A stretch of DNA of 64,000 bases from Chthoniobacterales bacterium (GCA_035644055.1 DASQPH010000033.1:3308-67307), one strand, 5' to 3'. Positions 22,701 to 57,954 are shown, counted from the stretch's first letter. A program made the numbers and translations. Notes: a model not told the origin generated them from the sequence alone.

Positions 22701-23365
22701 GGCCATCGATAAGTCTCAACGGCACGCCGCTTGCCGGCCGTTTGGCGGACCCCGTTCTTGAGCTCCACGACGGCAACACCGTCGTTACCAACGATAACTG
22801 GAAGAGCGATCAGCAAACCGAAATCACGAATACCGGTTTTGCTCCAACCAACGATCTCGAGTCCGCGATCGTGCGGACGCTGTCGCCCGGTAATTACACC
22901 GTGATTGTGCGTGGAAAAGGAGGCGGCACCGGCATAGGTCTGGTCGAAGTCTACGACCTGAGCCAGACGAGCATTTCGTTACTGGGTAATATTAGTTCAC
23001 GCGGATTCGTCGATACTAACGACAACGTAATGATCGGTGGCTTCATCATTGGGCCCGTCGACCGCGGCAATCCGCGAGTGGTCGTGCGCGCTCTCGGCCC
23101 GAGCCTGAGCAGTTCCGGCGTGCCGAACACGCTGCAGAATCCGACGCTCGAATTGCACGATGGCAGCGGAACCCTGATTTCATCGAACGACGATTGGCCG
23201 ACGGACCCCAACTCGAGCCTGGTCGTAGCGAATGGTCTGGCGCCATCCGACACCCGGGAAAGCGCTATCTTCACCCCCCTGACTCCCGGCCAATACACGG
23301 CGATTGTCCGCGGTGTCGGCAATACTACCGGGATCGGACTTATAGAAGTTTACAACCTGCAATAA
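19790..23365 (+). CDS. Secreted BNR/Asp-box beta-propeller (sialidase-fold) protein with FN3 domain and tandem C-terminal NISTR/VEVY module
   Basis: 1191 aa with a signal peptide. Asp-box motifs: SDNDGQTW, SDDGGAHF, SEDNGVSW, SDDHGSTW, FDGGATW. FN3: LAWSEADNGNSAITSYQILRG...KTYYYKVVAVNAVGSS. PTPTPTPPTTP linker, then two module copies. Confidence 0.9.
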   Translation: MKKAASSLTARVTLAMLFLLSGVVLLISAISSSRLSSATPASGSIGPAGAPLGWDGTATGTGSASGESTCVEGVNCDTFTLTVTGTQSDWANAGKRIEVKITPPATQDDYDLVIHKDNNSGKTIDSSGNGAGVPEVAHINPAVDGVGAFTIHVIYFATTPPDQYHGTATVVSLTPPAPPPAASDNGPKVGYENFEAPGILTPVTTTTGPTVEFMGRGAGEPSIGVNWNSASNTAIGGVTNFQSDLETLFISFSSLCSTGVNATWANRPAPTSQVIDSDPIGFTDRQTGRVFAAELTATSPTCKVSFSDNDGQTWVASSGPLGSGIDHETIGGGPYHAPIPPGLIYPNAVYYCSQDLVTAFCLRSDDGGAHFGNVVPTYTTECGGLHGHVKVSPKDGTVYLPNNNCGGEGAVVVSEDNGVSWDIRHVRNNSVDTVSGSSDPAVGIDSNGRVYFAIANADSSMVVATSDDHGSTWNNIVDVSSTLGLKNIRYPAAVAGDAGRAAVAFYGSTTAGSANAATFNGIWHLYIAHTFDGGATWTVSDATPNAPVQRGCIWTGGGANICRNLLDFFDVSIDKHGRVEVGYVNGCSGGSCAQAGPGATGNGYGAVATIARQSSGRRMLAGFDPSTPTSAPGAPAVTQRRLGSVVHLAWSEADNGNSAITSYQILRGTISNSETSLATVTGTQANYDDTTATDPSKTYYYKVVAVNAVGSSCSNNEIAAPYVGDTCTGVIIHQNLPTHPESTAASSNPQLAIDYVSMAEPPSTSNFVFKMKVTNLSTIPPNSRWRIVWDSYASAGQQFYAGMNSDSTSTVSFEYGEIATAVVGLVVGVPTETKKGVPLPTSNFNADGTITIVIAKASVGNSAPGDLLGAVNGRTFTGDTPSTVTLERSTALIDHTFVKAQTDNGYPPATYTVTNNSPCTAPTPTPTPPTTPAQLQNISTRARVLTNDSVLIGGFIITGTDPKKVIVRALGPSISLNGTPLAGRLADPVLELHDGNTVVTNDNWKSDQQTEITNTGFAPTNDLESAIVRTLSPGNYTVIVRGKGGGTGIGLVEVYDLSQTSISLLGNISSRGFVDTNDNVMIGGFIIGPVDRGNPRVVVRALGPSLSSSGVPNTLQNPTLELHDGSGTLISSNDDWPTDPNSSLVVANGLAPSDTRESAIFTPLTPGQYTAIVRGVGNTTGIGLIEVYNLQ
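22586..23362 (+). other. Tandem C-terminal module, copies B1 (22586-~22964) and B2 (~22965-23362)
   Basis: AQLQNISTRARVLTNDSVLIGGFII...VIVRALGPSI...PVLELHDGN...NDNW...ESAIV...YTVIVRG...GIGLVEVYDLS, then LGNISSRGFVDTNDNVMIGGFII...VVVRALGPSL...PTLELHDGSG...NDDW...ESAIF...YTAIVRG...GIGLIEVYNLQ-stop. Confidence 0.85.
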
Positions 23366-28589: not shown

Positions 28590-28750
28590 AGATTTTGAAC
28601 GGCGAGTTGGACAGTTCGCTTCGGGGCCGTGAAGCGGACCCGTTCATTTAAGCAATCGCGCCTCGAAGCGCAAGCGGCGGTTGGAACGCGGCCTGCTAAG
28701 CAAAATGCGCCCAAAACCCCACGTATCCATTGCCTTGTCCACCGCTTTGC

Positions 28751-30352
28751 ATGAAACAATCGCCGCCTTCGCCAAAATCATTCTCCGTCGTTGCGGATAA
28801 AGCAGCGGACCTGGCGCCGGGGGACGCGATCTTTCGCGAGCTCTTTGAGGGCGCGCCGATCGGCATGGCGCTGCTCGCGCTCGACGAGCGGTTCCTGCGC
28901 GTCAACGCGTCGTTCTGCAAAATGGTCGGTTATTCGAACGAAGAGCTGCGGCAGCGCACGGCCGAGGACATTACTTTCGCGGACGACATCGAGACCGGGC
29001 GCCAGCTCGCCCAGAGCTTGTTGAACGGAACGACCCGCTACACGGGCGACAAGCGTTACGTGCACAAGAATGGCGAAGTGCTTTGGGTCAGCCGCACCGC
29101 CAGCATTATCCGAAACGAGCAGGGCGAACCGAAACATTTCCTGCTCATGGTCGAAGACGTTTCCGTGCGGAAAGCCAGCGAGAAAGCCCTTCGGGAAGCG
29201 AAAGAAGAAGCCGACCGCGCGAACCGCGCCAAGAGCGATTTCCTCTCGCGGATGAGCCACGAACTGCGGACACCGCTCAACTCCATTCTCGGCTTCGGCC
29301 AGCTCCTCGATCGCCAGACGCCGTCGGAAATACAGCGGCCGCGCATTCGCTACATTCTCAGCGCCGGCCGGCATCTCTTGAACCTGATCAACGAAGTCCT
29401 GGACATCAGCCGGATTGAAGCGGGCACGTTACAGCTCTCGCTCGAACCGGTCTGCCTCGAGGAAGCAATCGCCGAAGTCCTTGATTTAATGCGGCCACTC
29501 GCCGCCGAACGAAGCATTACCCTGAACGCGAATTGTTCGCTGAATAGCAACACCTACGTTCTGGCGGACCGCCAACGCCTCAAACAGGTGCTGTTGAATT
29601 TCCTTTCCAACGCCGTCAAATACACCGCGGTCAAGGGCAGCGTGACGGTTTCCGTGGCCGAATCCGCCACCGACCTCAGGCGAATTTCAGTGCAGGACAC
29701 CGGCGCGGGCATTCCCGTCGAAAAACAGGCGCGTCTCTTTACTCCGTTCGACCGCCTCGGCGCGGAACAATCTGCGGTGGAAGGAACTGGACTGGGCCTC
29801 GCCCTTTGCCAGCGTTTGGTCCACGCCATGAACGGGTCGATCGGCGTCAACAGCAGCCTCGGAAGTGGCAGCACTTTCTGGCTGGACCTTCCGCAATCGA
29901 AATCACCGCTCCAAACTCTCACCGACGTGCGCGGCGAATCGGCGTCCGAAGCGCAGCTCGGCCAGGAATCCCGCCGCCTCCTTTATATTGAAGACAATTT
30001 CTCCAACGTGACCCTGGTCGACCAGATGCTGGGGGAACGCCCTGCGCTGGAACTAATGACAGCGATGCAGGGCCGGGTTGGTTTGGACCTGGCGCGCCAG
30101 CACACGCCTGATCTGATTTTGCTCGATCTGCATCTTCCCGATATGCCGGGCTGGCAGGTGCTCGCTCAACTCAAGGCCGATCATCTTACCCGCGAGATTC
30201 CGGTCGTTGTCATCAGTGCCGACGCCACCGCACCGCAGATTCAGCGTCTCATTTCCGCCGGCGCCCGCGCCTATCTAACGAAGCCACTCGACATTCCGGA
30301 ATTCTTCCGGGTGATCGACGAAGCACTGTGTTTCGCGGAAGCGGCGGCGTGA
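28751..30352 (+). CDS. Soluble hybrid sensor histidine kinase (PAS - HisKA - HATPase_c - receiver)
   Basis: The ORF track starts at TTG 28730; ATG is at 28751. PAS: FRELFEGAPIGMALL...YVHKNGEVLWV. H-box SHELRTPLNSILGF. G-box GTGLGLALC. REC: LYIEDN...DLILLDLHLPDMPG...KP. No TM segment is evident. Confidence 0.9.
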   Translation: MKQSPPSPKSFSVVADKAADLAPGDAIFRELFEGAPIGMALLALDERFLRVNASFCKMVGYSNEELRQRTAEDITFADDIETGRQLAQSLLNGTTRYTGDKRYVHKNGEVLWVSRTASIIRNEQGEPKHFLLMVEDVSVRKASEKALREAKEEADRANRAKSDFLSRMSHELRTPLNSILGFGQLLDRQTPSEIQRPRIRYILSAGRHLLNLINEVLDISRIEAGTLQLSLEPVCLEEAIAEVLDLMRPLAAERSITLNANCSLNSNTYVLADRQRLKQVLLNFLSNAVKYTAVKGSVTVSVAESATDLRRISVQDTGAGIPVEKQARLFTPFDRLGAEQSAVEGTGLGLALCQRLVHAMNGSIGVNSSLGSGSTFWLDLPQSKSPLQTLTDVRGESASEAQLGQESRRLLYIEDNFSNVTLVDQMLGERPALELMTAMQGRVGLDLARQHTPDLILLDLHLPDMPGWQVLAQLKADHLTREIPVVVISADATAPQIQRLISAGARAYLTKPLDIPEFFRVIDEALCFAEAAA

Positions 30353-30461: not shown

Positions 30462-33400
30462 TTGGGCCGCACGCTCGTGCTTCTCAGCGCGGCATGGCTG
30501 TTCATTCCCGCGCCTCGCGTAAGCGGCGACACCTGCACCACGCCACCCGGCGGCATGGTGAGCTGGTGGCCGGGCGATGGCGATGCGACCGATATTCAAA
30601 GCGGCAACAATGGCACGCTGCAAGGCAGTGTCCCATTCGCACCCGGCGAAGTAGATCAGGCATTCAGCTTCAATGGCAATCCAGCGAATTATGTTTCGGT
30701 GCCAAACAGTGCGTCCCTCGAACTTACAACGTTCACCATCGATGCCTGGATATACCCAACCACCGATGCGCCGGTAGCTCAATGGATCCTTGATAAAGGG
30801 CCTTCCAGTGGGGACGCAAATTATGCGTTATCTCTCAGTAAATTTCCTGACGGCAATCACGCTGAAATTGATTTCGACGACGCAAGCATTGGTCATCAAT
30901 TCGTTGATTCGATCGGCCCGATTCCTCTGAACACCTGGACCCATGTTACCGGGACCTACGATGGCACGACACTAAAGCTTTATGTCAACGGCATCCTCGA
31001 CAACTCAGAGATGTTTAGTACCACACCGGCTACGACGGGTCAGCCAGTCACGATTGGACTGAGAGGTACTAGCCAGTATCCATTTAATGGTCTGATCGAT
31101 GAAGTAGAAGTGTTCGATCACGCCCTCACTGATGGGCAAGTTCTAACGATCTACAACGCGGGCAGCGCGGGCAAGTGTAAGCCGCCGCCAAGGGTCGTGA
31201 CGAAGACCGCCGATACTGATGACGGCGTGTGCGACTCCGACTGCTCGCTGCGTGAAGCAATCGCGGTAGCGCAGGCTGTTCCTGGCGCGGACACGATTAA
31301 TTTCAACATACCGACAAGCGATCCGGGCTATGACTCGGGCACGGGAGTTTATACGATCGTCGAGAACAGTTACCTTGCCATTCAAAGCGACGTTACAATC
31401 AACGGTCTCGGTGCGAATGTTCTGACGGTTAAGCGCGCTGATGGAGCGCCCAACCTGTCCGTCTTTATAATTTATCCCGGGACCGTCGTGTCGATCTCTG
31501 GCATGACCATCACCAACGGCAATTACGTCGGCGGTCTCGGCGGCGGAATCTACAACTTCGGCTCGACGACGGTCTCGAACTGCGTCATCACCGGCAATAG
31601 CGTCGGCAGCAGCGGTTATGGCGGTGGTATCTTCAATCACGCGGCAAACAGCAGCGATGCCAGCCTTACCCTGATCGAAAGCACGGTCAGCAACAACACC
31701 GCTATCTACGGCGGCGGCGTAGGCAACCTCGCCAATGATGGCAGGACGGCAACCCTGACAATCATCAGGAGCACGGTCAGCGGCAATACGACGCCCGGTG
31801 GTGGTGGCGGCGGCATCGTTAACATTATTAACAGCGGCAGCAATGGGACTTTGACCATCACTAACAGCACCGTCAGCGGGAATAGCTCTGAATACGGCGG
31901 AGGAATTTTTAGTGTCGGGGGCACGTCGATCTTCACCAATGTCACTGTGACCAACAACCGCGCCGACCTGGACAACGACGGCATCGGTGATGGGGGCGGT
32001 CTCTATAATGGCAGCGTCGGCGGCATCACGCTGGAAAACATAATAGTGGCGCTTAATTACAAAGGTGTCGGCTCTTCGGCGACCGCCGATGATATCTACG
32101 GCGGCACTCTTGAGGCCGCAAGCTCCTATAACCTGATCGGCACCGGTGGAGACGGGGGACTCGTTGACGGGGTGAACAACAACCACGTCGGCGTCGCTAA
32201 TCCCGGCCTCGGAGCGCTCCAAAACAACGGCGGGCCGACTCAAACACATGCCTTAATCGGAGGTAGTCTCGCGATTGACCAGGGCAACAGTTTCTCGCTC
32301 GCGACAGACCAGCGCGGGGCCGGCTTTAGTCGGCCCGTTGATCTCGACGACGCGACCTACCCGAACGCTTCGGACGCCGCGGACATCGGCGCGTTCGAAT
32401 TGCAAACGCTGCCTCCGTCGCCCCTGCCTAACGCGCCCGACCTGCAAGCCGCGAGCGACACGGGAGACAGCGACACCGATAACATTACGGAAGACAACAC
32501 ACCGACATTCGACATCACCGGTGTCACATCCGGCACACTCATCGAGCTGGTGCGTAATGGCGTGCCGGTCGCCAGTGGCATAGCAACCGGAACGACAATT
32601 ACTCTTACCGACAACGGCCCGGCTCCGGATGGCACCCATTCCTACACAGCGCGGCAGACGGTGAATGGCGCGACGAGCGCGGACTCGCCTGCGCTTTCTG
32701 TGATGATTGACGCGCCTCCATCGGTGACGATCAACCAGGCGTCAAGCCAGGCTGATCCAACTAATAGCTCGCCGATCAATTTCACGGTGGTCTTCTCCGA
32801 AAACGTCACCGGTTTCAGCAACGGCGACGTCACCCTGTCGGGCACGGCTGGCGCAACGACGGCAACAGTTACCGGATCAGGCGCGACTTATAACGTGGCG
32901 GTTCGTGGGATGACGGACAACGGGACCGTCGTCGTGAGCATCCCGGCAGGGGCAGCGGAGGACACGACCGGTCACCCGAACACCGCCTCGACGAGCACGG
33001 ACAACGCGGTGACGTTTTTCGGCAGCGTCTTCACCTCGCTCGAGGTCAACTCGACAGCCGACTCCGATGATGGGCAATGCACAACCGATCCTGGAGGTTG
33101 CACGCTCAGAGAAGCGATCAACGCGGCCAACGCCGATCCGGGGGTCGACACGATTACGTTCGCTTCGGGGCTGACCGGCACGATCACGCTGGATACCGCG
33201 CTTCCTCCCCTGTCCGATATGACGATCATCGGGCCGGGAGTGTCGCAGCTGACCGTGCGGAGAAATAGCACCGCGGCGACGCGCTTCCGCATTTTCACGA
33301 TCACGAATAGCGCGTTGGTCTCAATCTCTGGGATGACAATCTCAGATGGTTACACCGCAGACGGCCAGTCCGGCCCCTTCCCTACGTTAGGCGACAATGG

Positions 33401-36400
33401 CGGCGGCATCTTAAATGGGAGCGGTGCGACGCTCAACCTTACGAACGTGGTCATTAAGGGAAATCGTACCGGTAATGGCGGCAGCATTAGCACCGGCACT
33501 AACATCACCAGCGCCAACGGCGGCAGTGGCGGCGGGATCTTCAACGAAGGCGGTGCGGTCCTTAACCTAACGAACGTCATTGTGAGCGATAACGTCGCCG
33601 GCAACGGCGGCGATGCTGGCGACGCGGCAAGCGTCAATGTTCATAGCGGCCCAGGCGGCAGCGCCGGCGCCATCTTCAACGGCAGCGGGGCGGCCCTGAG
33701 CCTGACAAATGTGACGGTGACCAATAACACCGCTGGTAACGGCGGCAACGCCGCCGGTGGTAACGCGTTTGCCGGTGCTGGAGGCGACGGCGGCGGCATT
33801 CTCAATTCCGCCATGCTGACGACCTGCACCAACAGCACGTTTAGCGGGAACCGAGCCGGCAATGGCGGCAACGTCAGCGGCGGCACTAATGTCTTCGGCG
33901 GGAGGGGCGGTTTCGGCGGAGCCATCGCCGTCTTTTTCACCAGCGACCCGTCCAACCTAACGAGTGTGACCATAAGCGGTAACAGAGCCGGCAACGGCGG
34001 GACTGCTTCAGGCAGCAACGCCTTTCCTGGCGGCGGTGGCGTTGGAGGCGGGATCCTTGGCGGTGGCACCTTTACCATCACCAACAGTACGGTGACTAAT
34101 AACACCCCCGGCGCAGGCGGCAACGGCGGCGGCATATATAGCCCCGGCGGTACCGGCCCAATCTTGCGTAACACGATTGTCGCCGGGAACCACGCCGTCA
34201 GCGGCGGCATCGGTCCCGACCTCATCGGTCCTTTTGACTCACAAGGCTACAACCTAATCGGCAATAACTCTGGCGCTACGATCACGCCCAATACCGGCGA
34301 TCAAATCGGCACCTCAGGATCTCCTATTAACCCGCTTCTCGGCCCACTGGCCAATAACGGCGGTCCCACGCAAACCCACGCGCTTCTGCCGGCGAGTCCT
34401 GCCGTCGATAAAGGCGACAGCAGCGGCTCGGCGATAGACCAGCGCGGACAACCGCGGCCGTTTGACCTTTCCAACATAGCTAATGCTTCCGGCGATGGGA
34501 GCGACATCGGTGCCGTGGAAGACACAGCAGTGCAGTTCAGCGCGACCACAAATAGTGTGAACGAGAATGCCGGTAATGCCACCATCACTTTGCAGCGGCT
34601 AGGCAATCCAATCGGGCCGGTGACTGCGAAAGTCACTATCACCGACGTCACCGCCAGCTCGGCCGACTATGTTTTCGCGTCGGGTGTTCTCGATGCGGCG
34701 TTTAACGCGGGGGGCGCGGGAGCGAATAGTTCAGTGCTGGCGGTGGCGACACAACCCGACGGGAAGATTGTTATCGGTGGCACCTTCACTAGTTATAATG
34801 GGGATGTCGCCGCCAACGATTACATCATTCGGCTCAATACCGATGGCTCGCGCGACACCACCTTTAATTCCGGCGGCGCCGGAGCAGATGGGCAGGTCGT
34901 GGCGGTGGCGCTGCAACCTGATGGCAAGATCGTCATCGGCGGAAACTTCACCAAATACAACGGGGAGGCAGCCGCCAACGATTACATCATGCGGCTCAAT
35001 GCCGATGGCTCGCGTGACACCACCTTTAATCCCGGCGGCGCAGGAGCAAATGGTCAAGTAGCGGCGGTGGCGATACAGACCGACGGCAAGATTGTCATCG
35101 GTGGCTACTCGGCCAGCTACAATGGTAACACTGTGTCTAGCTACATCACGCGGCTTAACGCCGACGGAACCCCAGACGCGACCTTTAATCCAGGAAGCGC
35201 AGGAGCGGACAATTTTGTCTATACGGTGGCGATACAGACCGACGGAAAGATCCTTATCGGAGGCGAATTCACCAGTTACAACGGCGACTCCGCCGCCAGC
35301 GATTACGTTATGCGGCTTAACGTCGACGGAACACGCGATACCACCTTCAACTCCGGTGGCGCGGGACCAAATGGCTTCGTCGGGGCGACGGCGGTGCAAC
35401 CCGATGGAAAGATTGTCATCGGCGGGAACTTCACCAGCTACAACGGCACTGGAGCCGCGAACGATTACATCATGCGACTCAACGCCGACGGAAGTCGCGA
35501 CAACACCTTCAATGCGGGCGGCGTAGGAGCAGATGATGTAGTTGCCGGGGTGGCCGTGCAACCGGACGGAAAGATCGTTATGGGTGGCTACTTCACTGTT
35601 TACAACGGCGACCCAGATGCGAGCGATAATGTTATGCGGCTCAATTCTGACGGAACGCCTGACACTACCTTCAATGCGGGCGGGGCCGGAACCAATGCTA
35701 GTGTGAACGCGATAACGATGCAGGGCGACGGGAAAATCGTCGGCGGCGGCTATTTCACCAGTTACAATGGCAATACGGCAGCGAGCGATTACATTATACG
35801 GCTCGACAGCGACCTCTTTGTCACCTGGCCGGCCGGTGATGGCACGGACAAGACTATTCTGCTTCCGATCGTGAACGACATGCTGCATGAAGCAGACGAA
35901 ACTCTCACTCTCACGCTCGTTCCGCTCGTTGGGGCCGCAACCACCGGCGAGATTGCCCCTCAAACGCTGACCATCGTCGATAACGACAACACTGCGCCGG
36001 TCGCGACTAATCAAGCGGTCAGCACGAATGAAGACACGGCGAAGAATATCACACTAACAGGGTCAGATGCCGACAACGACCCGATCACCTTTTCGGTTGT
36101 TAGCAGTCCGAGCCATGGCGCCTTAAGCGGGACGGCCCCGAACCTTACTTACACGCCGGCCTCCGACTACAACGGCGCCGATAGCTTTACCTTTAAAGTC
36201 AATGACGGGCGAGTTGACTCGACCGCCGCTACCGTTTCGATCACGGTTAATGCGGTAAATGATCCCCCGACTGCTAATGCTCAGTCGGTCTCGACAAACG
36301 AAGATACGGCTAAGAGTATCACGTTGACCGGCAGCGACAAAGAAACGCCGTCTGGCAGCCTGACCTTTGCTATTACGGCGACGCCCGCTCACGGCATACT

Positions 36401-38063
36401 CACCGGCACGCCACCTAACGTGACCTATACGCCCACTTCAAACTACAACGGCCCTGACAGTTTCCAGTTTACAGTGACTGACAATGGCGATGGCACATCC
36501 CCGGCATCAACCAGTGGCGCGGCCACGGTCACCATAACCGTCAACGCGATCAATGATCCGCCGACCGCTAATGCGCAATCGGTGACGACAAATGAAGACA
36601 CGGCGAAGAGCATTGCCCTGACCGGATCCGATATAGAGAACGATCCCTTGATCTTCAGCGTAGTCACAAGCCCGACGCATGGCTCGTTGACCGGCACGCC
36701 GCCTAATCTGACCTACGCACCTGCCGGCAACTACAACGGACCGGATAGCTTTACCTTCAAGGCAAATGATGGTCAGGCTGACTCGGCGCCTGCAACTGTC
36801 TCTATTACAGTCAATGCCGTTAACGACGCTCCGTCCTTCACCAAGGGAGCGGACCAAACGGTTACCGCCGGATCAGGCGCGAAGACCGTGAACAACTGGG
36901 CCACGAATCTTTCCGCCGGCCCAGCGGATGAATCAGGTCAGGCCGTGAACTTCATCGTCTCGAATAACAACAACAGCCTGTTCTCCACGCAGCCGGCCGT
37001 GAGTTCCACCGGCACCCTCACCTTCACGCCGGTCAACAGCGGCTCTGGCACAGCTACGGTCAGCGTCTCCATTCACGACAATGGCGGGACCGCGAATAGC
37101 GGCCAGGACACCTCCGCGATCCAGACCTTCGCCGTTACTGTCAATCCATCACCAACGCCAACCCCCACACCTACAGCGACAGCGACCGCAACGGCTACGC
37201 CAACAGCTACTGCTACTGCCACAGCCACGCCTACCGCTACAGCAACGGCCTCGGCTACTCCCACAGCTACTCCGACTGCTACACCAGTTCAGGCCCTGAA
37301 CATTGCAACGCGCCTGCGGGTTGATACCGGCGAGAACGCCATGATCGCCGGCTTCATCATTACCGGCAACAGCGACAAGGCAATCGTCCTTCGCGGCAGA
37401 GGCCCCTCGCTCGCACCCTTTGGCATTCCTGACTTCCTGGCCGATCCAGTTTTAGAGCTCCATGGGCCCACCGGTTCCTTGATTACCTTGAATGACAACT
37501 GGAAGGACACCCAACGCAGCCAGATCGAAGGGACCATCTTCCAGCCCACCGATGATCACGAATCGGTCATTCTCGCGAGCCTTACTCCTACTGCCTATAC
37601 CGCCATCCTGGCGGGCAAGGGCAACACGGCTGGCGTCGGCATTGTCGAAGTGTTCGATAACAACCAGGCCGCCAACTCACAGCTTGCGCAAATCAGCACG
37701 CGCGGGCTTGTCCAGGGCGGCAACAGCGTGATGATCGCCGGATTCATCCTGGGCGGCAGCCAGAACCCGACTCACGTCGCGATCCGCGGCATTGGACCCT
37801 CCCTGGGCCAGTTCGGAATCAACAACCCTCTCCCTGATCCGACTCTCGAGCTCCATGACGGCAACGGCACGCTGCTGATCGCGAACGACAACTGGCTTGA
37901 CGATCCGGTTTCGGCCGCGCAGTTGACCGCGAACGGTCTCGCGCTTTCGAACACGAAAGAATCCGGCATCTTCACCACCCTGCCCGCGGGACAATTCACG
38001 GCGATCCTGGCCGGGAAAAACGGCAGCGGCATTGGCGTGGTTGAGGCCTATAATCTGAAGTAA
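30462..38063 (+). CDS. Giant secreted multidomain surface protein (2533 aa): LamG, two CSLREA-type beta-helix modules, Ig-like domains, Calx-beta with a nested delta-60 propeller, cadherin-like repeats, tandem C-terminal module
   Basis: Uninterrupted 7.6-kb ORF with TTG start and short signal peptide MGRTLVLLSAAWLFIPAPRVSG. Domain motifs are listed in the sub-features. Confidence 0.9.
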   Translation: MGRTLVLLSAAWLFIPAPRVSGDTCTTPPGGMVSWWPGDGDATDIQSGNNGTLQGSVPFAPGEVDQAFSFNGNPANYVSVPNSASLELTTFTIDAWIYPTTDAPVAQWILDKGPSSGDANYALSLSKFPDGNHAEIDFDDASIGHQFVDSIGPIPLNTWTHVTGTYDGTTLKLYVNGILDNSEMFSTTPATTGQPVTIGLRGTSQYPFNGLIDEVEVFDHALTDGQVLTIYNAGSAGKCKPPPRVVTKTADTDDGVCDSDCSLREAIAVAQAVPGADTINFNIPTSDPGYDSGTGVYTIVENSYLAIQSDVTINGLGANVLTVKRADGAPNLSVFIIYPGTVVSISGMTITNGNYVGGLGGGIYNFGSTTVSNCVITGNSVGSSGYGGGIFNHAANSSDASLTLIESTVSNNTAIYGGGVGNLANDGRTATLTIIRSTVSGNTTPGGGGGGIVNIINSGSNGTLTITNSTVSGNSSEYGGGIFSVGGTSIFTNVTVTNNRADLDNDGIGDGGGLYNGSVGGITLENIIVALNYKGVGSSATADDIYGGTLEAASSYNLIGTGGDGGLVDGVNNNHVGVANPGLGALQNNGGPTQTHALIGGSLAIDQGNSFSLATDQRGAGFSRPVDLDDATYPNASDAADIGAFELQTLPPSPLPNAPDLQAASDTGDSDTDNITEDNTPTFDITGVTSGTLIELVRNGVPVASGIATGTTITLTDNGPAPDGTHSYTARQTVNGATSADSPALSVMIDAPPSVTINQASSQADPTNSSPINFTVVFSENVTGFSNGDVTLSGTAGATTATVTGSGATYNVAVRGMTDNGTVVVSIPAGAAEDTTGHPNTASTSTDNAVTFFGSVFTSLEVNSTADSDDGQCTTDPGGCTLREAINAANADPGVDTITFASGLTGTITLDTALPPLSDMTIIGPGVSQLTVRRNSTAATRFRIFTITNSALVSISGMTISDGYTADGQSGPFPTLGDNGGGILNGSGATLNLTNVVIKGNRTGNGGSISTGTNITSANGGSGGGIFNEGGAVLNLTNVIVSDNVAGNGGDAGDAASVNVHSGPGGSAGAIFNGSGAALSLTNVTVTNNTAGNGGNAAGGNAFAGAGGDGGGILNSAMLTTCTNSTFSGNRAGNGGNVSGGTNVFGGRGGFGGAIAVFFTSDPSNLTSVTISGNRAGNGGTASGSNAFPGGGGVGGGILGGGTFTITNSTVTNNTPGAGGNGGGIYSPGGTGPILRNTIVAGNHAVSGGIGPDLIGPFDSQGYNLIGNNSGATITPNTGDQIGTSGSPINPLLGPLANNGGPTQTHALLPASPAVDKGDSSGSAIDQRGQPRPFDLSNIANASGDGSDIGAVEDTAVQFSATTNSVNENAGNATITLQRLGNPIGPVTAKVTITDVTASSADYVFASGVLDAAFNAGGAGANSSVLAVATQPDGKIVIGGTFTSYNGDVAANDYIIRLNTDGSRDTTFNSGGAGADGQVVAVALQPDGKIVIGGNFTKYNGEAAANDYIMRLNADGSRDTTFNPGGAGANGQVAAVAIQTDGKIVIGGYSASYNGNTVSSYITRLNADGTPDATFNPGSAGADNFVYTVAIQTDGKILIGGEFTSYNGDSAASDYVMRLNVDGTRDTTFNSGGAGPNGFVGATAVQPDGKIVIGGNFTSYNGTGAANDYIMRLNADGSRDNTFNAGGVGADDVVAGVAVQPDGKIVMGGYFTVYNGDPDASDNVMRLNSDGTPDTTFNAGGAGTNASVNAITMQGDGKIVGGGYFTSYNGNTAASDYIIRLDSDLFVTWPAGDGTDKTILLPIVNDMLHEADETLTLTLVPLVGAATTGEIAPQTLTIVDNDNTAPVATNQAVSTNEDTAKNITLTGSDADNDPITFSVVSSPSHGALSGTAPNLTYTPASDYNGADSFTFKVNDGRVDSTAATVSITVNAVNDPPTANAQSVSTNEDTAKSITLTGSDKETPSGSLTFAITATPAHGILTGTPPNVTYTPTSNYNGPDSFQFTVTDNGDGTSPASTSGAATVTITVNAINDPPTANAQSVTTNEDTAKSIALTGSDIENDPLIFSVVTSPTHGSLTGTPPNLTYAPAGNYNGPDSFTFKANDGQADSAPATVSITVNAVNDAPSFTKGADQTVTAGSGAKTVNNWATNLSAGPADESGQAVNFIVSNNNNSLFSTQPAVSSTGTLTFTPVNSGSGTATVSVSIHDNGGTANSGQDTSAIQTFAVTVNPSPTPTPTPTATATATATPTATATATATPTATATASATPTATPTATPVQALNIATRLRVDTGENAMIAGFIITGNSDKAIVLRGRGPSLAPFGIPDFLADPVLELHGPTGSLITLNDNWKDTQRSQIEGTIFQPTDDHESVILASLTPTAYTAILAGKGNTAGVGIVEVFDNNQAANSQLAQISTRGLVQGGNSVMIAGFILGGSQNPTHVAIRGIGPSLGQFGINNPLPDPTLELHDGNGTLLIANDNWLDDPVSAAQLTANGLALSNTKESGIFTTLPAGQFTAILAGKNGSGIGVVEAYNLK
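30531..31190 (+). other. LamG / concanavalin-A-like lectin domain (Laminin_G_3 type)
   Basis: PPGGMVSWWPGDGDATD...GEVDQAFSFNG...YVSVPNS..FTIDAWIYP...WTHVTGTYDGTTLKLYVNG...GLIDEVEVFDHALT...IYNAGSAGKC. Confidence 0.75.
31191..32405 (+). other. CSLREA-motif right-handed beta-helix module 1
   Basis: TADTDDGVCDSDCSLREAIAVAQ...DTINFNIP, then repeated GGGIxN...TVSNxxxxGN turns. Ends HALIGGSLAIDQGN...DQRGAGFSRP...DIGAFE. Confidence 0.7.
32406..33030 (+). other. Two Ig-like domains
   Basis: ASDTGDSDTDNITEDNTPTFDITG... (adhesin-type Ig-like) and INQASSQADPTNSSPINFTVVFSENVTGFSNGDVTLSG... Confidence 0.55.
33031..34523 (+). other. CSLREA-motif right-handed beta-helix module 2
   Basis: NSTADSDDGQCTTDPGGCTLREAINAANADPGVDTITFA. 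Many GNGG/GGGI turns. Ends HALLPASPAVDKGD...DQRGQPRPFD...DIGAVE. Confidence 0.7.
34686..35813 (+). repeat. Seven tandem delta-60-type repeats (~53 aa / ~160 nt each), predicted 7-blade beta-propeller
   Basis: Seven occurrences of Q[PTG]DGKI[VL]xGGxF[TS]xYNG...DY[IV]xRLNxDG[ST]xDT[TA]FN.GGAG. Confidence 0.8.
35988..37148 (+). repeat. Three cadherin-like (tandem-95 type) repeats plus one divergent Ig-like unit
   Basis: The unit VNDPPTANAQSV[ST]TNEDTAKSI[TA]LTGSD...HG.L[ST]GT.PN[LV]TY.P...YNG.DSF.F... is repeated three times. Confidence 0.7.
37149..37286 (+). repeat. Thr/Ala/Pro low-complexity linker (SPTPTPTPTATATATATPTATATATATPTATATASATPTATPTATP)
   Basis: Direct translation. Imperfect (ACN-GCN)n coding repeat. 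Confidence 0.9.
37287..38060 (+). other. Tandem C-terminal module, copies C1 (37287-37664) and C2 (37665-38060)
   Basis: ALNIATRLRVDTGENAMIAGFII...VLRGRGPSL...PVLELHGPTG...NDNW...ESVIL...YTAILAG...GVGIVEVFDNN, then LAQISTRGLVQGGNSVMIAGFIL...AIRGIGPSL...PTLELHDGNG...NDNW...ESGIF...FTAILAG...GIGVVEAYNLK-stop. Confidence 0.85.
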
Positions 38064-38190: not shown

Positions 38191-41100
38191 TTGGGGCGCA
38201 TAACGCGATCGCTCAAGCCTAAAATGAGTCCCCTAAAGCTCCGCAACGCACCTGCCATGCGAACAAAACCGCTCGGTCTTACGACTCGGGTCTCGGGCCA
38301 CTTCGCCATTTCGCTTTTCGCAGCAGTCTTGGTCGCGGCAATCGGAAGTTCGGCGGGGACCGCGCGAGGGGTCCAGCCGAATGTCAGCATTACCACGCTT
38401 CCCACCACCATCACTCAAAACTTCGACACTCTCCCCGCCAGCGGAAGCGCGACCTGGACCAACGACAGCACTCTGCCCGGGTGGTATCATGCGCGCACCG
38501 GCAATGGCACGACGATCGTCGCGAATGATGGGCTCAGTAATGGTGGCAATCTTTATTCTTACGGAACTGGGACAAACACCGACCGGGCCCTGGGATCCGT
38601 CGGATCCAGCAACGCCGCCGCCGGAAGTTTCTTCTGGGGGATTCTGCTCACGAACAATACCGGGGCCACCATTACCTCCCTTGATATTTCATACACTGGA
38701 GAGCAATGGCGCAATAGCGCGGCGGCCGCGCAAACGGTTTCGTTTTCTTATCTAATAGGAACTACGCTGACCGGAAGCTTGGTCGAGTTTCAAAGTGCCG
38801 GCGTTGCCGTAACGCAATTGAATTTCACCAGCCCAATAACAGGCGGCACCGCTGCCGCACTCAATGGCAATCTCGCGGCGAATCGCACCGCTATCTCCTT
38901 CACAATCGGTAGTCTCAATCTCGCCGACGGACAAAGCATCATGCTCCGCTGGTCAGATCCCGACCACACTGGCTCGGATCATGGTCTCGCCATCGACGAT
39001 TTTTCGGTAACGGCGAATGGCTCTGGAGGCCCGACGCCTACGGCATCTCCCACGGCGACCGCCACAGCAACCCCGACAGCAACCGCGACTGCGACACCCG
39101 CGCCAATTGCGGTTCACGATATTCAAGGCAGCGGCGCGACTTCGCCGGTGGTCGGACAAACCGTAACGACTACGGGGATTGTAACCGGCATTAGAAGCAA
39201 TGGCTTCTTCATCCAGACTCCCGATGCTAGTGCGGACGCCGACCCAAATACGTCTGAGGGAATCTTCGTCTTCACCAGCAGCGCGCCTCCCGCGGGCGCG
39301 GTGGTCGGAAATGCAGTCTTAGTCACTGGCACGGTTCAGGAATTCATACCCTCCGCCGATCCGTTCAGCCCAGCGCAGACGGAAATCTCCGGCTCCCCAG
39401 TTACAACCGTGCAGTCAACCGGCAATCCTTTGCCGGCGCCCCACGTGATCACGGCGGCTGAGACACAGGTCAACGATCTGAATAACCTCGAGAAGTACGA
39501 GGGCATGCGGGTGCAGGTGAATTCGTTGACAGTCATCGCGCCTACACAGGGCACAATCAGCGAAGCGAATGCGACTTCGACCTCGACTGGATTTTTTTAC
39601 GGCGTGGTTACAAGTGTGGCGCGACCTTTCCGCGAACCCGGCATCGAGGTCGGCGATCCGGTGCCCACGCCGTATCCGTCAGGCCCGGCGCCCGCAAACG
39701 TCCCGCGGTTCGATTTCAATCCCGAGCGGTTGCGAGTAGGCAGTTGTGCCCTCACTGGTTCGTCCTGCATCGACGTTACAACCGGCGCGACGCTCACTAA
39801 CCTCATTGGGCCGCTTGATTACGGATTTCGCACTTACACTATCGACGTCGATCCCAGTTCACCGCCGGTTGTAGCTGGAGTCGTGGGTTTCGTCTCCGTG
39901 CCGGCCCAACTAGCAAGCGAGCTAACCGTCTCGAGCTTTAATCTGCAGCGCTTCTTTGACACGGTTGAGGACCCGGCTGTGGGCGATGTCGTGCTTACTA
40001 CGACTGCCTTTAACAATCGTCTCAACAAAGCATCACTGGCCATTCGCAATGTCCTGCTAATGCCTGACGTGATCGGCGTAGAAGAGATGGAAAACCTGAC
40101 AACGCTGCAAGCCATCGCGAACAAAGTGAATGCCGATGCCGGGCCTGGCACAACTTACCAGGCCTTTCTTGCAGAAGGTAACGATGTTGGCGGAATCGAT
40201 GTCGGTTTCCTGGTCAAGACGCAAGCTAATGGTCTGCCGCGCATCACGGTGAATAGCGCCATCCAGTATAACAAAGCAGAAACTTTCATTGATCCGAGTA
40301 GTAACTCTTCCGCTTTGCTTAACGATCGGCCGCCACTCGTGCTGCGTGCGAGCGTCGATCAGGCTGGTGGCGGTACCTACTCGTTTACTGTAATTGCAAA
40401 CCACCTGCGATCGCTCAGCGGCGTCGATAGCACGACAAGCGCGCATACGCGGGTGAAGCGCCAAAAGCAGGCCGAATCGCTCGCGACTCTGATTCATTCC
40501 TTCGAGACCGTTGGCGACTCGAATCGCGTAGCGCCATTCGACGATAACATCGTCTCGGTTGGCGATTACAACTCATTTGAATTCAATGATGGTTATGTTG
40601 ATGTGGTAGGCACCGTTCTCGGAACGCCGGCCCCGGCCGACCAGGTGGTGCAGCCTTCGGCGACTATCAGCACTGACATGACTGATCTGATTCAGTTTGC
40701 CGCGGCCGGGCAAAACTATTCTTACACTTTCGATGGCGACGCGCAGGCGCTTGATCACGAGTTGGCTAACAGCAGCATGGTCGCGCGCTTGACCCGCCTT
40801 GCTTACGGCCGCATGGATGCCGATTACCCTGAAGCCTATCGCAGCGATCCGAACCGTCCCGAGAAACTTTCCGATCACGATCCGTCAGTCGCCTACTTCG
40901 ATCTAACGCCTGCGCCAACACCAACACCAACACCTACGCCTACTGCAACTGCAACTGCAACTGCAACTGCGACGGCTACAGCCACAGCAACGGCAACTGC
41001 GACTGCAACCGCTACCGCTACGTCAACACCTACCGCGACTGCTACATCCACACCTACCGCGACTCCGCCGGCCGGGCCCATCGCAGTCACCAACACCAAC

Positions 41101-44100
41101 GATAGCGGCGCTGGCTCATTGCGCGCCGCGATCACGGCGGCCAACCTCAACCCCGACGCGGATATCATCGCTTTTGAGGCCAGCGCGACCGGGACGATCA
41201 ATTTGCAAAGCGCGCTGCCCACTCTCTCGACCGACATGACGATTCAGGGGCTGGGCGCGAATGTGGTGACCGTCAGGCGCGACACGGTTCCCGACTATCG
41301 TATTTTCACCGTCAACAGCGGGAAGACGGTGACGATCTCCGGCCTTACGATCAGCAACGGACGCAGCTACGACGGCGGTGGCATCAGTAACGCCGGCACA
41401 TTGACCGTCACCAACAGCACGCTCAGCGGTAATTACACTCCTAGCTCATGCTGCTTCAGGGGCGGCAACGGGGCCGGCATCTTCAACAGCGGCATGCTGA
41501 CGATCACCAACAGCACGCTCAGCGACAATCATACTAGCGACGGCTCCACCGGCTCCCAGGAGAAGGCCGAGGCCGGCGACGGCGGCGGCATCTACAACAT
41601 GGGCACGCTGATCGTCACGGACAGCACGCTCAGCGGCAACCAGACTGGCATAGGCGGCATCTGGGAATTCGTGGGTCCATTTGGTTTCAACTTCGTTGGC
41701 GGCGATGGCGGCTCCGGGGCAGGCATCTTCAATTTCTCCGGCACAGTGACCGTCACTCACAGCACGCTCAACGGCAATCGATGTGGCAGGGCTGGCGGCC
41801 CTGCGGGACTAGGGGGCGGCTTCGGCGGCAGTGGCGCCGGCGTCTTCAACCGGTCCGGCAGCGTGACGATCACCAACAGCACGCTGAGCGGCAATCAGGC
41901 TGGGTGCGGCTCCAGCTCCCCGGCGGAGACGTCTAATGGCTTCGGTAGCGCCATCGATAATAGAGACTTGCTGATCGTCACCAACAGCACACTGAGCGGC
42001 AATTATAACCTCTGCGACGGCGTTGACGAACGTGACAGAGCCGACACCTACGGCATCTACAACGGAGGCACCGCGACCTTCAAGAACTCGATCATCACCA
42101 ACAGCGGGATCTACGGGAATTGTGCGAACGACAATGGCGCTCCTTTCAATGGCTCAGGAAGCAATCTCGAAGCCGCCGGCGGCCTCGGTGATGCCTGTCC
42201 CGGGTTTACCCAGGTCACCAGCGGCCAGCTCAACCTCGGCGCACTCGGCAACAACGGCGGGCTAACCATGACGCACGCGCTCCAGCCGGGCAGTGTGGCT
42301 ATCGACGCCGGCACCGATTTGACGACACTCAACGTCCCGCTCGATAACTCGACGAACACAGTCGTGGTGATTGACGCAACCAGTATTCCTGGCGGCATCG
42401 GTTTCCTGGTCCGGATCGATAACGAGCAGATGAGTGTCACCTCGAAATCGACCAACACTTTGACAGTCGTGCGTGGAGCGAACGGCACGACGGCCGCGGC
42501 GCATAGTGCCGGCGCTGCGGTAAACGCGGCCTTTGACCAGCGCGGCGCCGGCTTCCCGCGGCTACGCGACGGAAATGGCGACAGCACGGCGACGGTCGAC
42601 GTCGGCGCATTCGAGGCCACAGGTACCGCGCCATCCCCCACTCCGACTGCTACCGCGACTGCAACGGCAACGGCAACGCCGACGGCTACCGCGACTGCAA
42701 CGGTTAGCGCGACTGCAACCGCGACGGCGACGCCTGTGACCTCGCCAACACCAACAGCCACGCCCACAGCTACGCCTTTCGGGCAGGAAATATTGTATGG
42801 CATCTCAAATGGGTTGGGCGAGCCAGCGGAGAACCTGATCTACCGGATCGATCCTGCGAACGGCGATCTGTCCAATATGGTGCAGGTAACGCTTCCGGGA
42901 TACACGGTTGGCAGGGTTCAATCGCTGGTCATGCGACCCAGTGACGGCGTTTTGTTCGCAGTCGTTCAAACCCAATCGCCGGATGGACCGCGCCGACTCG
43001 TAACGATAAATCCGACTACCGGCGTATGCACGGATATTGGGGCGTTCACCGAGCAAATCGCTTCTTTGGCTTTCCGCGCGAGCGGGACACTCTATGCCGC
43101 GAGTGGCACTATCATCGGACCCGGACTCCATCCAAAGAGCCTTTTTACGATCAATACGACCACGGCCCAGGAGACCCTTCTCTTTGCTTTGGTAAATGGG
43201 GATGGTGGCGAAACGATAGTCTTTCACCCTAACGGACTTCTCTACCATGCCTCGGGCGGCACTCCCGGTGCGTCCCCGGCTATCTTCGAAAGCATCAACG
43301 TCGATACCCAGGCGGTGACACCGATCAATTCGGATTCTGTTCCGGAGTGCTTCGCGATGGGCTACTCGCCAAGTGCCGGCACGTTGTTCGGTTCGGATTA
43401 TAATTCGGATCTTTATACCGTGGACATCACTACGGGCATCCGGACCTTCGTCGGCGCCATGGCCGATCAGTTGCCGGTTAGTGGCATGATCGCGGCTCGT
43501 AACCGCGGCCTGGCCTTTGCCGTTACTCAGGTGTGCAGCGCACCGCCCGGTGGCATGGTGAGCTGGTGGCCGGCCGATAACACTCCGGCTGACATCGAAG
43601 GCCATCACGACGGAACCTGGACCGGAACGCCGGTCTATGCCGCAGGCGAAGTAGGCCAGGCTTTTAGCTTCGACGGAACTACGGCAAACTATATCGTGGT
43701 CCCGAACAATACCGCTCTCGACCTCACCCAATTCACCGTAGACGCGTGGGTCTATCCTACAGCTAGTCCGGATGCGGGCTTTGGAACTGTGATTGATAAG
43801 GAATTTTCCACGGGCGGAATCAACTACGCATTGTTTGTCGGGCACGACGGTACTGTCGAAATTGACTTCAACGCAGGTAGCCACCAATTCGTTGACTCAG
43901 CTCCCGGCGCCGCTCCGCAGAACACATGGACCCATATCGCAGGAACCTACGACGGCACAACCGTTAAGCTTTACGTCAATGGCGTTCTGAATGGCTCATT
44001 CGTGTCCAATCAAACGCCCACCGGCGGACAGGACCTTTATATCGGCGTCAGAAATGCAGCCAGCCTTCAAGGCGCATTCCAGGGCTTAATCGATGAGGTG

Positions 44101-47100
44101 GAGGTTTTCGATCACGCCCTCACCGATGCACAAGTTCTGGCCATCTACAGCGCGGGCACCGCGGGGAAGTGCCGCTCATGCGCGACGCCTCCTTTGAACA
44201 TGTTGGCCTGGTGGCCCGGCGACGGAAACGTCAGTGATCTTCAGGGAAATCACAACGGGACGCTGATGAACGGCGCGACCTTCGGAACCGGAGAAGTCTC
44301 TCAGGCGTTCAGTCTCGACGGAGTAGACGACTATGTTGACGTTGGCGACGTCGATCTGCCCGCCACCTTCACCATCGATGCCTGGATCGATCCGACGACG
44401 GTGACAAGTGATCCGTATGGCCATACTATTATCTCGAAGGCGGACAATACCTTTTCCAGCTACGACCTCGCCGTTGGCGATGGGTTCCTTTTCCTCAGCG
44501 TAGAAAACAGTATAGGAAACACGACGGTATATCGCTCGCTTGATGCGCTTGTTCCTGCCGGCGTCTGGTCGCATGTCGGCGTAACCTACGATGGAAACGC
44601 GGGGGCGGGCGAAAAGATAAAGTTTTACATCAACGGAATTACCGACACTGGGATACCTATAGGAGGCAATGATGCGGGCGGAACGCCACGAAACACCAGT
44701 GTTCCCGCTGCAATTGGCCGAGTCGGCAGCTTCTCGGGCGCGTATTTTTCCGGCCTGATTGACGAAGTCGAACTGTTTAGCCGAGTTCTCTCGGTTGTTG
44801 AGATTCAGGCGATCTACGATGCGGGGAGTTTCGGCAAGTGCAAGCCGCCGCCGGTGGTCCAATTTAACTCGGCAACCTACAGCGTTAATGAAGGAGATGG
44901 AAACGTAACGTTAACCGTAACGCGCACCGGTGACTCGTCCGGGACTTCCACGGTCCAGTATGCAACCGCGAATGGGAGTGCGACCGCGGGCTCGGATTAT
45001 ACGACTACGTCAGGCACGCTTACGTTTGCTCCCGGAGTCATCAGCCAGGACATCCTGGTGCCGATCACGGACGATTCCACCTACGAAGCGAGCGAGGACT
45101 TTACCGTAACGTTAAGTGCGCCTTCGACTGGGACGACGATTGGAACACCCGATAGCGCTACGGTTACGATAACCGACAACGATCCCGTTCCGACCATTTC
45201 CATCGACGATGTCGCGCACAATGAAGGGAATAGCGGCACGACCAGTTACGACTTTACGGTGAGCCTTTCAAACCCGTCGTCCCAGACCATCACGGTTGAG
45301 TACGCGACGGCGGACGACTCCGCCACGGCGCCTTCTGATTATACCGCGATTCCGACGACGACATTGACCTTCAATCCAGGCGACACGAGCAAGCCGGTTA
45401 CAGTCCTGGTTAACGGCGACACGGCGTTCGAGAACACGGAAACTTTCACCGTTCACCTCTCCGCCCCGACGAACGCAACCATTAGCGATGCCGACGGCAC
45501 CGGCACGATCACGAATGATGATACCGCACCAGTCTTTACGATCGACGACGTCACTCACAACGAAGGCAATGCCGGTACGACCATCTACACCTTCACGGTG
45601 ACCAAGACCGGCAGCACAGCGTTGAGTTCTTCCGTCCAATTCCAAACCCAGGACGGCACGGCCACAGTTGCGGATAACGATTACCAGGCAAATTCTGGCA
45701 CGCTCTTTTTCGGAGCGGGGGTGACTACGCGGCAGGTCACGGTCCTGGTCAACGGGGACACGAACGTGGAACCGACCGAGACCTTCACAGTTCACCTGTC
45801 GAATGAGGTCAATGCTTCCATCAGCGACGCGGATGGAACCGGAACGATCACTAACGATGACATCTTCTTCTCGATTAACGACGTGACGATGAACGAGGGC
45901 AACGCAGGCCAAGCCTCGTTTGTCTTCACCGTAACGAAGTCCGGCGACAACGGCTCGGGCTCGTCGGTGAATTTCGCCACTCAGGATGGCACCGCGAAGG
46001 TAGCGAATGGCGATTACCAGGCCAATAGCGGCACCCTGAACTTCGGGGCGACTGACACCACGATGCAGATCACGGTGCTGGTCAATGGCGACATCACGCC
46101 CGAGCCCGATGAAATCTTTACCGTTCACCTCTCCGGCGAAACCAACGCCACCATCTCCGACGCCGATGGCGTCGGGACGATCACCAACGATGATGGTCCG
46201 CCGCCGATTGTGTACGTCGATGACGATTGGGCCGCGGTGCCGACCGGCGACGATCCGGACGGCGCGGGACCGGCCACGAGCATGGGCTTCGACGCGTTCG
46301 CCACGATTACGGACGGCGTAAATGGTGTGGCCAATCCGGGAACGGTGATCGTTTATGCCGGCACGTATGCCGAGGGCAACAACACGATCGACCTTACTAA
46401 GTCGGTTACTATATCAGGACCCAACGCGGCCAACAGTCCGAACACAGGCCTACGCGTCGCCGAGGCGGTCGTCACCAGTCAGGGTACGAGTATAGTCCCG
46501 AACGGAGTATTCCGGCTCAACGTGCCGAACCTCACCGTGACGATAGAGGGGCTTAAGTTCGATGGCACCCCGGCGGCGATGAATGCCTACGCCGACCACG
46601 ACACCATCAGCCTGAAGAAGAACATATTTACCGCGTCACATGACCCGGGAATGTACTTCGAGACCCCGAACCTTACCATCGATGACAACCGTTTCGTAGA
46701 TATTGCGGCCCAGGGTGAAGACACGATCGCCGTAGACGTCAATGTCGGAGTCAACCGCGCTCCCGTCACCATCACTAACAACATCTGGTCCAATGTTGCC
46801 GTCGGCGCACTTAATCTGAGTCGGGTTTCCGGTACGATTTCAGGCAACCAATTCCTCAACGTCCAGTATTACGGTGTGTTGGTTGCGTACGATGCCGGCA
46901 ACCTGTCGATCACCGGCAATGTATTCGATGGCATCACCAATCCCGATCCAACAAACGTCCCGACGTGGGGTGCAGGAATTCGCTTCTACCAACCGGCCGT
47001 TACTGCGCCGGTTAATGTTGCGAGCAACAGGTTCACGAATTCCTACGTGGGCGTTGGCATTAGAGGCGTTCCGAATGATCCGGGGGCGGACATTACAGGC

Positions 47101-56223: not shown

Positions 56224-56229
56224 CGTGGC

Positions 56230-57902: not shown

Positions 57903-57954
57903 GACGGAATTGGTTAGCGTGCTAACGAATCCCAATTTACCCGGATGTCAAAAA

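Follow-up and report, generated by a model that had tools for sequence, protein, structure and literature searches.

A tandem pair of PPC/CBD-like beta-sandwich domains, mostly C-terminal, shared by diverse secreted proteins of Chthoniobacterales

Module pairs at the locus

In the 64,000-nt stretch of a Chthoniobacterales bacterium metagenome-assembled genome (MAG) analysed here (the window), four plus-strand open reading frames (ORFs), denoted proteins A to D, carry the same module at their C-terminus: two tandem units of ~125 amino acids, that is, eight units in the window (Table 1). The flagged interval, 37287-38060, is module C, the pair that ends protein C. The pair is a fixed heterotandem and a distinct family outside Pfam, of the beta-sandwich class of pre-peptidase C-terminal (PPC) and collagen-binding domains (CBD), and we weigh below whether it serves as a binding and retention module or as a sorting tag. 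The first-pass annotation had described four plus-strand proteins with signal peptides and four terminal pairs of units, and ORF calling, translation and a profile hidden Markov model (HMM) bore this out. Run on the window, the HMM built from the eight units returned these eight copies and no others (domain E-values of 3.7e-61 for D1 to 4.8e-55 for D2). All four proteins have a signal-peptide-like (Sec-type) N-terminus, and in each of them the last unit runs up to the stop codon, with one residue between the last strand and the stop. We likewise found no terminal transmembrane helix and no PEP or LPXTG motif; the proteins end in the consensus VEVY[ND]L[QKN]-stop.

The cargo assignments of the first-pass annotation also hold. 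The NF038122 match of protein A lies above its cut-off (118.5 bits vs. 80), and the BNR_2 propeller call (30.3 bits vs. a Pfam cut-off of 31.4) and the fn3 match (E = 4.6e-5 on protein A; 24.0 bits vs. 25) fall just below theirs; the other regions are of the delta-60, LamG, cadherin-like and choice-of-anchor Q kinds and of the Calx-beta and ExeM/NucH nuclease kinds. In NCBI, protein A is annotated as 'fibronectin type III domain-containing protein' and protein B as 'hypothetical protein'. As had been reported, a Pro/Thr/Ala linker precedes three of the four modules (B, C and D).

The consensus motifs read from the eight units (NISTR, GPSL, DPxLEL, NDxW, ES, YTAI and VEVY[DN]L) are correct, but the description of the module as invariant was overstated: identity between units of different window proteins is 43-56%, except for the adjacent genes C and D (76% for the first units, 92% for the second), and 22 of ~125 columns are invariant across the eight. 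At the DNA level, the linker and module of gene C (37100-38063) and those of gene D (51414-52383) share 88% mean column identity, which, together with the 92% protein identity of copy 2, points to recent duplication or gene conversion of the two 3' stretches. The linkers of these two genes consist of near-perfect ACN-GCN repeats.

Table 1. Module-bearing genes, linkers, module units and the nearby efflux and glycosyltransferase genes in the window
Feature	Position	Strand	Description
Protein A	373-2478	+	701 aa; signal peptide, FN3-like region, NF038122-family metalloprotease, module pair; HZE56755.1
Unit A1 (copy-1 type)	1717-2103	+	unit HMM E 9.8e-59
Unit A2 (copy-2 type)	2104-2475	+	unit HMM E 8.6e-59; end ...VEVYGLN-stop
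Protein B	19790-23365	+	1191 aa; signal peptide, BNR-like propeller, FN3, Pro/Thr linker, module pair; HZE56777.1
Pro/Thr linker of B	22535-22585	+	17 aa; NSPCTAPTPTPTPPTTP
Unit B1	22589-22975	+	unit HMM E 1.5e-55
Unit B2	22979-23362	+	unit HMM E 3.4e-57; end ...IEVYNLQ-stop
Protein C	30462-38063	+	2533 aa; LamG, CSLREA/choice-of-anchor Q, delta-60 propeller repeats, cadherin-like, Big_9, Pro/Thr/Ala linker, module pair
Pro/Thr/Ala linker of C	37140-37286	+	49 aa
Unit C1 (first half of flagged interval)	37290-37676	+	unit HMM E 4.7e-60
Unit C2 (second half of flagged interval)	37680-38060	+	unit HMM E 1.2e-55; end ...VEAYNLK-stop
Protein D	38191-52383	+	4730 aa; ExeM/NucH-like nuclease region, LamG, Calx-beta x10, beta-helix, Pro/Thr/Ala linker, module pair
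Pro/Thr/Ala linker of D	51409-51600	+	64 aa
Unit D1	51604-51996	+	unit HMM E 3.7e-61; 76% identical to C1
Unit D2	52000-52380	+	unit HMM E 4.8e-55; 92% identical to C2; end ...VEVYNLK-stop
Efflux operon	52939-57935	-	AcrB-type RND transporter (1094 aa), HlyD-type membrane-fusion protein, MarR regulator
PMT_2/PMT-family (GT-C) glycosyltransferase	57955-59388	-	~5.5 kb downstream of both giant genes

Two domain classes in a fixed order

We compared the two copies in 156 pairs from related genomes, which comprise 312 units. For 309 of the 312 units, the nearest relative was a unit with the same place in the pair (copy 1 or copy 2) from another protein; a unit's own partner was its nearest relative only once. 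Copy 1 and copy 2 are therefore separate orthology classes, and the pair is an old, fixed heterotandem. This strongly confirms the earlier proposal that each first copy is closest to the first copies of other proteins, a likeness that is barely visible inside the window (50% identity for A1-B1 vs. 51% for A1-A2), and it supports the view of an old two-domain unit placed on unrelated cargo. Copy 1 is marked by a near-invariant Lys at column 30 and an Asp at column 123, and copy 2 by the motif STRGF. More than 30 columns are conserved at 90% or above across the 156 pairs, whose identity averages ~50-56%; many of these columns are polar loop residues, and conserved D, E and N columns are present. 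The terminal strand is conserved as G-L-V-E-V-Y-N-L-[QPNK], the last residue being Q, P, N or K. Every unit opens with N-[IL]-S-T-R (e.g., 37296-37313 and 37689-37703 in the window), the Asn being conserved at 97-99% and the Arg at 99-100%; this start also reads as an N-x-S/T sequon.

The AlphaFold2 model of the pair, obtained with a 124-row alignment, has a mean predicted local distance difference test score (pLDDT) of 89.8 and a predicted template modelling score (pTM) of 0.84, compared to a pLDDT of 41.9 in a single-sequence run on the module B pair. It consists of two sandwiches of eight strands each, plus short helices, with residues 1-125 corresponding to unit C1 and residues 132-258 to unit C2. 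The high pTM suggests that the two domains adopt a defined arrangement in the model. The conserved polar loops follow strand 1 (GDN), strand 3 (GPS...DP) and strand 5 (NDxW...ES). Given that strands alternate up and down in a sandwich, all three should cluster at one end of each domain, which would be opposite the N- and C-termini and hence away from the linker.

A Foldseek search of the Protein Data Bank (PDB) with the model returned as its top match the tandem collagen-binding domain s3a-s3b of ColG (5IKU; E = 7.9e-11, probability 1.0). The next matches were entries of DeCLIC, a channel with an additional N-terminal domain, the best of which were solved with Ca2+, and the Ca2+-bound LipL32 appeared further down the list (ranks 28, 39 and 43). 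Like the module, s3a-s3b of the Hathewaya (Clostridium) histolytica collagenase consists of two consecutive beta-sandwiches at the extreme C-terminus of a secreted enzyme, and 5IKU was solved with Ca2+. The module differs from it in having no sequence similarity detectable by HMMER against the PDB, in the orientation of its domains, in its specific motifs NISTR, GPSL and NDxW, and in being attached to dozens of cargo types, compared to a collagenase.

Relationship to described families

No Pfam model reached its gathering score on the window modules. Below threshold, the matches among 124 pairs were to GBD_IRG7_N (galactose-binding-like; 23 pairs), the Y_Y_Y beta-sandwich (12 pairs) and PPC (PF04151; 9 pairs at E < 0.01), with a best PPC score of 21.7 bits vs. 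the gathering score of 25.9. Searches of PDB sequences with HMMER, using one module or the unit profile as query, gave only chance-level matches (bunyavirus NSs, Cif and biotin carboxylase). Among the NCBIfam models, NF038127 (DVUA0089 family; cut-off 29 bits) matched module A at 49.7 bits and module B at 37.6 bits and did not match modules C and D; it matched 9 of 61 representative proteins at E <= 1e-3, and PGAP names no window protein after it. Alignment of the NF038127/DVUA0089 profile to the unit profile with hhalign gave a probability of 11% and covered the DPxLxL...PGxY core alone. The statement that the module cannot be placed in a named family is thus true of Pfam at threshold, and does not extend to NCBIfam, where NF038127 scores modules A and B above its cut-off.

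The likeness to PPC that had been suggested from the motifs is correct at the level of the fold, as judged from the AlphaFold2 model and Foldseek. PPC domains, for example those of the M4 protease E495, are C-terminal beta-sandwiches of Sec-exported proteins, are often found in tandem, and share with the module a core of the form D-x-x-L-x-L-x-D-x-x-G ... G-x-Y. The module differs from them in scoring below the gathering threshold, in its units of ~125 amino acids vs. a model of ~70, in its obligate heterotandem organisation, and in its cargo, which is mostly not peptidase. With the NF038127/DVUA0089 ('FDP') family the module has the FDP/DPxLxL...PGxY core in common. The translated DVUA0089 consists of a signal peptide, a single 'FDP' domain as cargo and a PEP-CTERM anchor, whereas the window proteins carry a terminal pair, large cargo and no PEP-CTERM. 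In kind, the module is thus a C-terminal accessory domain of the already known PPC/CBD type, which escapes Pfam and of which NCBIfam covers a minority. What is new is the obligate heterotandem, the motifs NISTR, GPSL and NDxW, the dozens of unrelated cargo types and the massive expansion in one soil lineage. In the literature on DVUA0089, on Chthoniobacterales C-terminal domains and on choice-of-anchor proteins, we found no description of this module pair.

Size and distribution of the family

The unit profile matched 18,861 representative clusters (50% identity) at E <= 1e-3, of which 9,437 matched at E <= 1e-30; judged by these sequence matches, the repeat is far beyond chance. A second protein database yielded at least 7,109 matches, and in species-representative genomes queried with a single module at least 509 of 593 candidate stretches were confirmed. 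Almost all of the best-matching loci (78 of 79) come from Chthoniobacterales, Spartobacteria or Verrucomicrobiota MAGs. These 79 loci and the window, 80 regions with ~1.3 Mb of sequence, formed the sample in which ORFs were called from stop to stop. It contains 185 module-bearing ORFs, with up to six per 20-kb locus and, in one MAG, at least 17 within 64 kb of sampled sequence; 165 of the 185 have exactly two units. The 120 best matches of the first protein search (P0001-P0120) are all ORFs of 204-224 amino acids. In the eight of these that we examined, the start lies inside copy 1 (e.g., 'MRAIGPSL...'); some of these ORFs come from contigs several hundred kb long. The short ORFs likely stem from frameshifted long-read MAGs or wrong start calls, in which case full-length members are undercounted.

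Chthoniobacterales, to which 'Ca. Udaeobacter' belongs, rank among the most numerous bacteria in soil, and few of them have been cultured. Of the proteases, nucleases, propellers and giant adhesin-like proteins that they secrete, a large part carries this one unnamed module, which offers a handle on the whole extracellular proteome; defining the family (~19,000 clusters at 50% identity) would name part of thousands of proteins, many of them annotated as 'hypothetical'.

Position in the protein, cargo, and the sorting-tag alternative

In 171 of the 185 ORFs, no more than 5 residues separate the end of the pair from the stop codon, and in 138 of the 150 top representatives no more than 3. The strictly terminal position proposed by the first-pass annotation therefore stands as a strong bias and not as a rule. 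Pairs are also found directly after the signal peptide (P0230, P0188 and P0157), at both ends of a protein (P0121, P0129 and P0144) and internally (L022, P0132 and P0166). In the Chthoniobacterales ORF of locus L022 (899-5179, plus strand), the cargo is followed by the pair (aa 762-1015), a Pro/Thr linker and a 412-aa CSLREA/beta-helix-like region. Because N-terminal, internal and double-ended pairs exist, the pair behaves as a binding or anchoring domain does, unlike a C-terminal sorting signal.

The cargo is highly diverse, with 59 Pfam families in 61 proteins. It includes the choice-of-anchor Q, C and Z, GloVer and ScyF-like families and M36 peptidases whose closest curated NCBIfam models are rhombosortase-, myxosortase- or T9SS-dependent (T9SS, type IX secretion system); by these names, the module occupies the place that an anchor takes in other bacteria. 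Among the stop-to-stop ORFs of at least 100 amino acids in the fetched loci and the window, a single one is a PEP-CTERM ORF.

Among the 120 homologues closest to cargo A, at 61-100% identity, 93 end in the pair, 8 have a single unit, 13 end in an FG-GAP/VCBS propeller, and 6 are short and lack the module; PEP-CTERM does not replace the module in any of the 120. In the 13 propeller-bearing homologues (~62-66% identity), the propeller fills the slot of the pair with ~200-300 amino acids, which shows C-terminal domain swapping on one NF038122 cargo. These homologues of the region 373-1716 of the window (P0336, P0341, P0345, P0355 and others) have 4-6 blades with FDFNRDGKPD repeats.

These frequencies bear on the possibility that the pair works as a genuine tag for sorting or export, which an undescribed outer-membrane translocon or sortase-like enzyme of Verrucomicrobiota would recognise as the T9SS recognises its C-terminal domain (CTD), with subsequent cleavage or covalent attachment to the surface. 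Such a tag would account for the extreme C-terminal position with the stop codon one residue past the last strand, for the very diverse cargo and its sortase- or T9SS-dependent relatives, for the many paralogues per genome and for the single PEP-CTERM ORF in ~1.3 Mb; T9SS CTDs, moreover, are beta-sandwiches too. It accounts poorly for the genuine N-terminal, internal and double-ended pairs and for a cargo that exchanges the pair for an FG-GAP propeller and not for another sorting signal, and a two-domain unit of ~250 amino acids is far larger than known tags. At E <= 1, the module matched no T9SS CTD (Por_Secre_tail/TIGR04183-type), PEP-CTERM, LPXTG or autotransporter model in Pfam and NCBIfam. 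T9SS machinery was absent from the window and from the examined loci, which are parts of genomes, and clustering of the non-module ORFs in the 80 regions revealed no conserved machinery adjoining the module genes, the top family occurring in 16 of 80. T9SS CTDs, PEP-CTERM/exosortase and LPXTG/sortase signals thus compare with the module as functional analogues only, being C-terminal, attached to diverse and overlapping cargo families and present in many paralogues per genome; the module differs in having no model match, transmembrane helix or signature motif, in its two folded domains, in not being obligatorily C-terminal and in showing no machinery in the window and loci.

Taken together, we regard a sorting or export tag as unlikely, and as less likely than a role in binding and retention. 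Of the functions first proposed (sorting, anchoring or export), non-covalent anchoring or binding is the part that the evidence favours; sorting and export are somewhat disfavoured by the N-terminal and internal pairs, the propeller swap and the lack of machinery in the sampled regions. A broader form of the same idea, in which the pair is the recognition or attachment module of an undescribed Chthoniobacterales/Verrucomicrobiota surface-sorting or outer-membrane export pathway, a counterpart of the T9SS CTD and PEP-CTERM whose rare N-terminal and internal copies are secondary derivatives, appears to us rather improbable. If true, this pathway would explain the route of Sec-exported proteins, dozens of them and as large as 4730 amino acids, to the surface and their retention there, and a genuine sorting signal would mean a new pathway in the PVC superphylum. 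Two specific candidates do not fit. Unlike an autotransporter (type V secretion) beta-domain, a 12-strand barrel with an aromatic last residue, the region is modelled as two duplicated sandwiches, ends in Q, P, N or K and has no Pfam match; a tag of the PEP-CTERM, LPXTG or GlyGly-CTERM type does not fit, as the end has no hydrophobic helix or signature motif and no NCBIfam match.

A candidate binding and retention module

The interpretation that we favour, and to which we give an even chance, is that of a portable PPC/CBD-type module for binding or retention, probably stabilised by Ca2+, by which Sec-exported proteins are tethered to one common ligand. Export would proceed via Sec, as the signal-peptide-like N-termini suggest. 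The cargo, be it protease, nuclease, propeller or giant adhesin-like array, would be held by the pair; that the two are joined, often via a flexible Pro/Thr/Ala linker, is seen directly in the sequence. The pair itself is predicted to be a rigid unit of two non-identical jelly-roll domains, non-catalytic and probably stabilised by Ca2+, and its conserved polar and aromatic loops (GDN, GPS, DP, NDxW and ES) at the linker-distal end may bind the common putative ligand. This ligand would most likely be a polymer of the cell's own surface or of the surrounding matrix, so that diverse secreted proteins would be kept near the cell. Of this picture, the analysis establishes the class of fold, the heterotandem, the size of the family, its positional frequencies and its range of cargo; Ca2+ binding, the binding face, the kind of ligand and the tethering are inferred. 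Functional analogues, with no sequence or fold relationship claimed, are SLH domains, dockerins and carbohydrate-binding modules (CBMs), which are fixed-copy repeats on unrelated secreted cargo, usually terminal, found at either end and often joined by Pro/Thr linkers. If a cell-surface polymer is bound, the module would explain how exo-enzymes are kept close in diffusive soil, and would be a natural display tag.

The binding-module interpretation draws on the modelled fold, the weak sequence links to PPC-like families, the fixed pair, the conserved polar loops, the flexible position, the propeller swap and the lack of conserved machinery beside the module genes in the sampled regions. Its precedents are the M4 proteases with their two substrate-binding PPC domains (PMC3327674) and the tandem CBDs of ColG; in E495, conserved Asp, Tyr and Trp residues of the two PPC domains mediate the binding of protein substrates (PMC3327674). 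Several observations weigh against it. The whole-pair TM-score to 5IKU is 0.31-0.33, and from such low scores we conclude that the fold match holds for each domain, while the relative orientation of the domains differs. A C-terminal bias of ~92-99%, with the chain ending one residue past the last strand, is not needed by a pure binding module, and the cargo families overlap heavily with families that bear true sorting signals elsewhere. Finally, proteases often lose their PPC domains once secreted (PMC3327674), and this may hold here too.

The last point is the core of a further alternative, that the pair is a classical 'pre-peptidase'-type C-terminal extension which aids folding, solubility or latency during or after secretion and is then removed by proteolysis, without a lasting role in localisation. 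The M4 protease precursors with two C-terminal PPC domains, usually cleaved after secretion, are its model, and the roles proposed for these domains are assistance in secretion or localisation, or inhibition of the enzyme (PMC3327674). The PPC-like fold, the weak PPC matches and the protease nature of some cargo (NF038122, M36 and S8) are consistent with it, but proteases are a minority of the cargo, the rest of which includes propellers, Ig and cadherin arrays, Calx-beta, nuclease, LamG and beta-helix regions, and the junction between linker and module has no strong processing motif, just a moderately conserved P-[AS]-Q-L-L before NISTR. Conserved polar loops and copy-specific identity across many paralogues suggest a specific interaction instead, and we consider a disposable extension doubtful.

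A domain that targets substrates in the environment (protein or polysaccharide of soil organic matter), comparable to a CBM or the ColG CBD and not tethering to the cell, overlaps with the retention module that we favour, the sole difference being where the ligand sits. The best structural match is a collagen-binding tandem, PPC domains bind protein substrates (PMC3327674), and hydrolytic cargo (protease, nuclease and BNR proteins) would gain from such targeting; much of the cargo, however, is non-enzymatic and adhesin-like, and if giant repeat proteins and dozens of unrelated enzymes share a single ligand, a cell-associated receptor is the better fit. We therefore rate an environmental ligand as quite unlikely.

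Genomic neighbourhood

The families that recur most often next to module genes in the 80 regions (loci L071, L026, L063 and others) are Ser/Thr kinase-TPR proteins (16), hybrid histidine kinases (15), ECF (extracytoplasmic function) sigma factors (11) and S41 tail-specific proteases (7); a PAS-histidine kinase-receiver gene in the window (28730-30352) is comparable to the recurrent hybrid histidine kinases. We rejected these neighbours as specific partners of the module, as they occur in at most 16 of 80 regions and belong to families that are large anyway; their recurrence may simply reflect the size of these families.

No secretion system was found in the window, whose other contents are housekeeping genes, an AcrB-type efflux pump and a PMT-family glycosyltransferase. 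The RND operon (Table 1) was rejected as an exporter of the giant proteins, because it is an AcrB/membrane-fusion protein/MarR efflux system, and a type I secretion route was rejected because all four proteins have Sec-type N-termini. The Pro/Thr/Ala linkers of proteins C and D would be typical, though putative, substrates of O-glycosylation. Two further features of the window are unrelated to the module: two adjacent SPFH/Band-7 paralogues on the minus strand (14348-16332), and a plus-strand protein with two TonB C-terminal domains (4574-5239).

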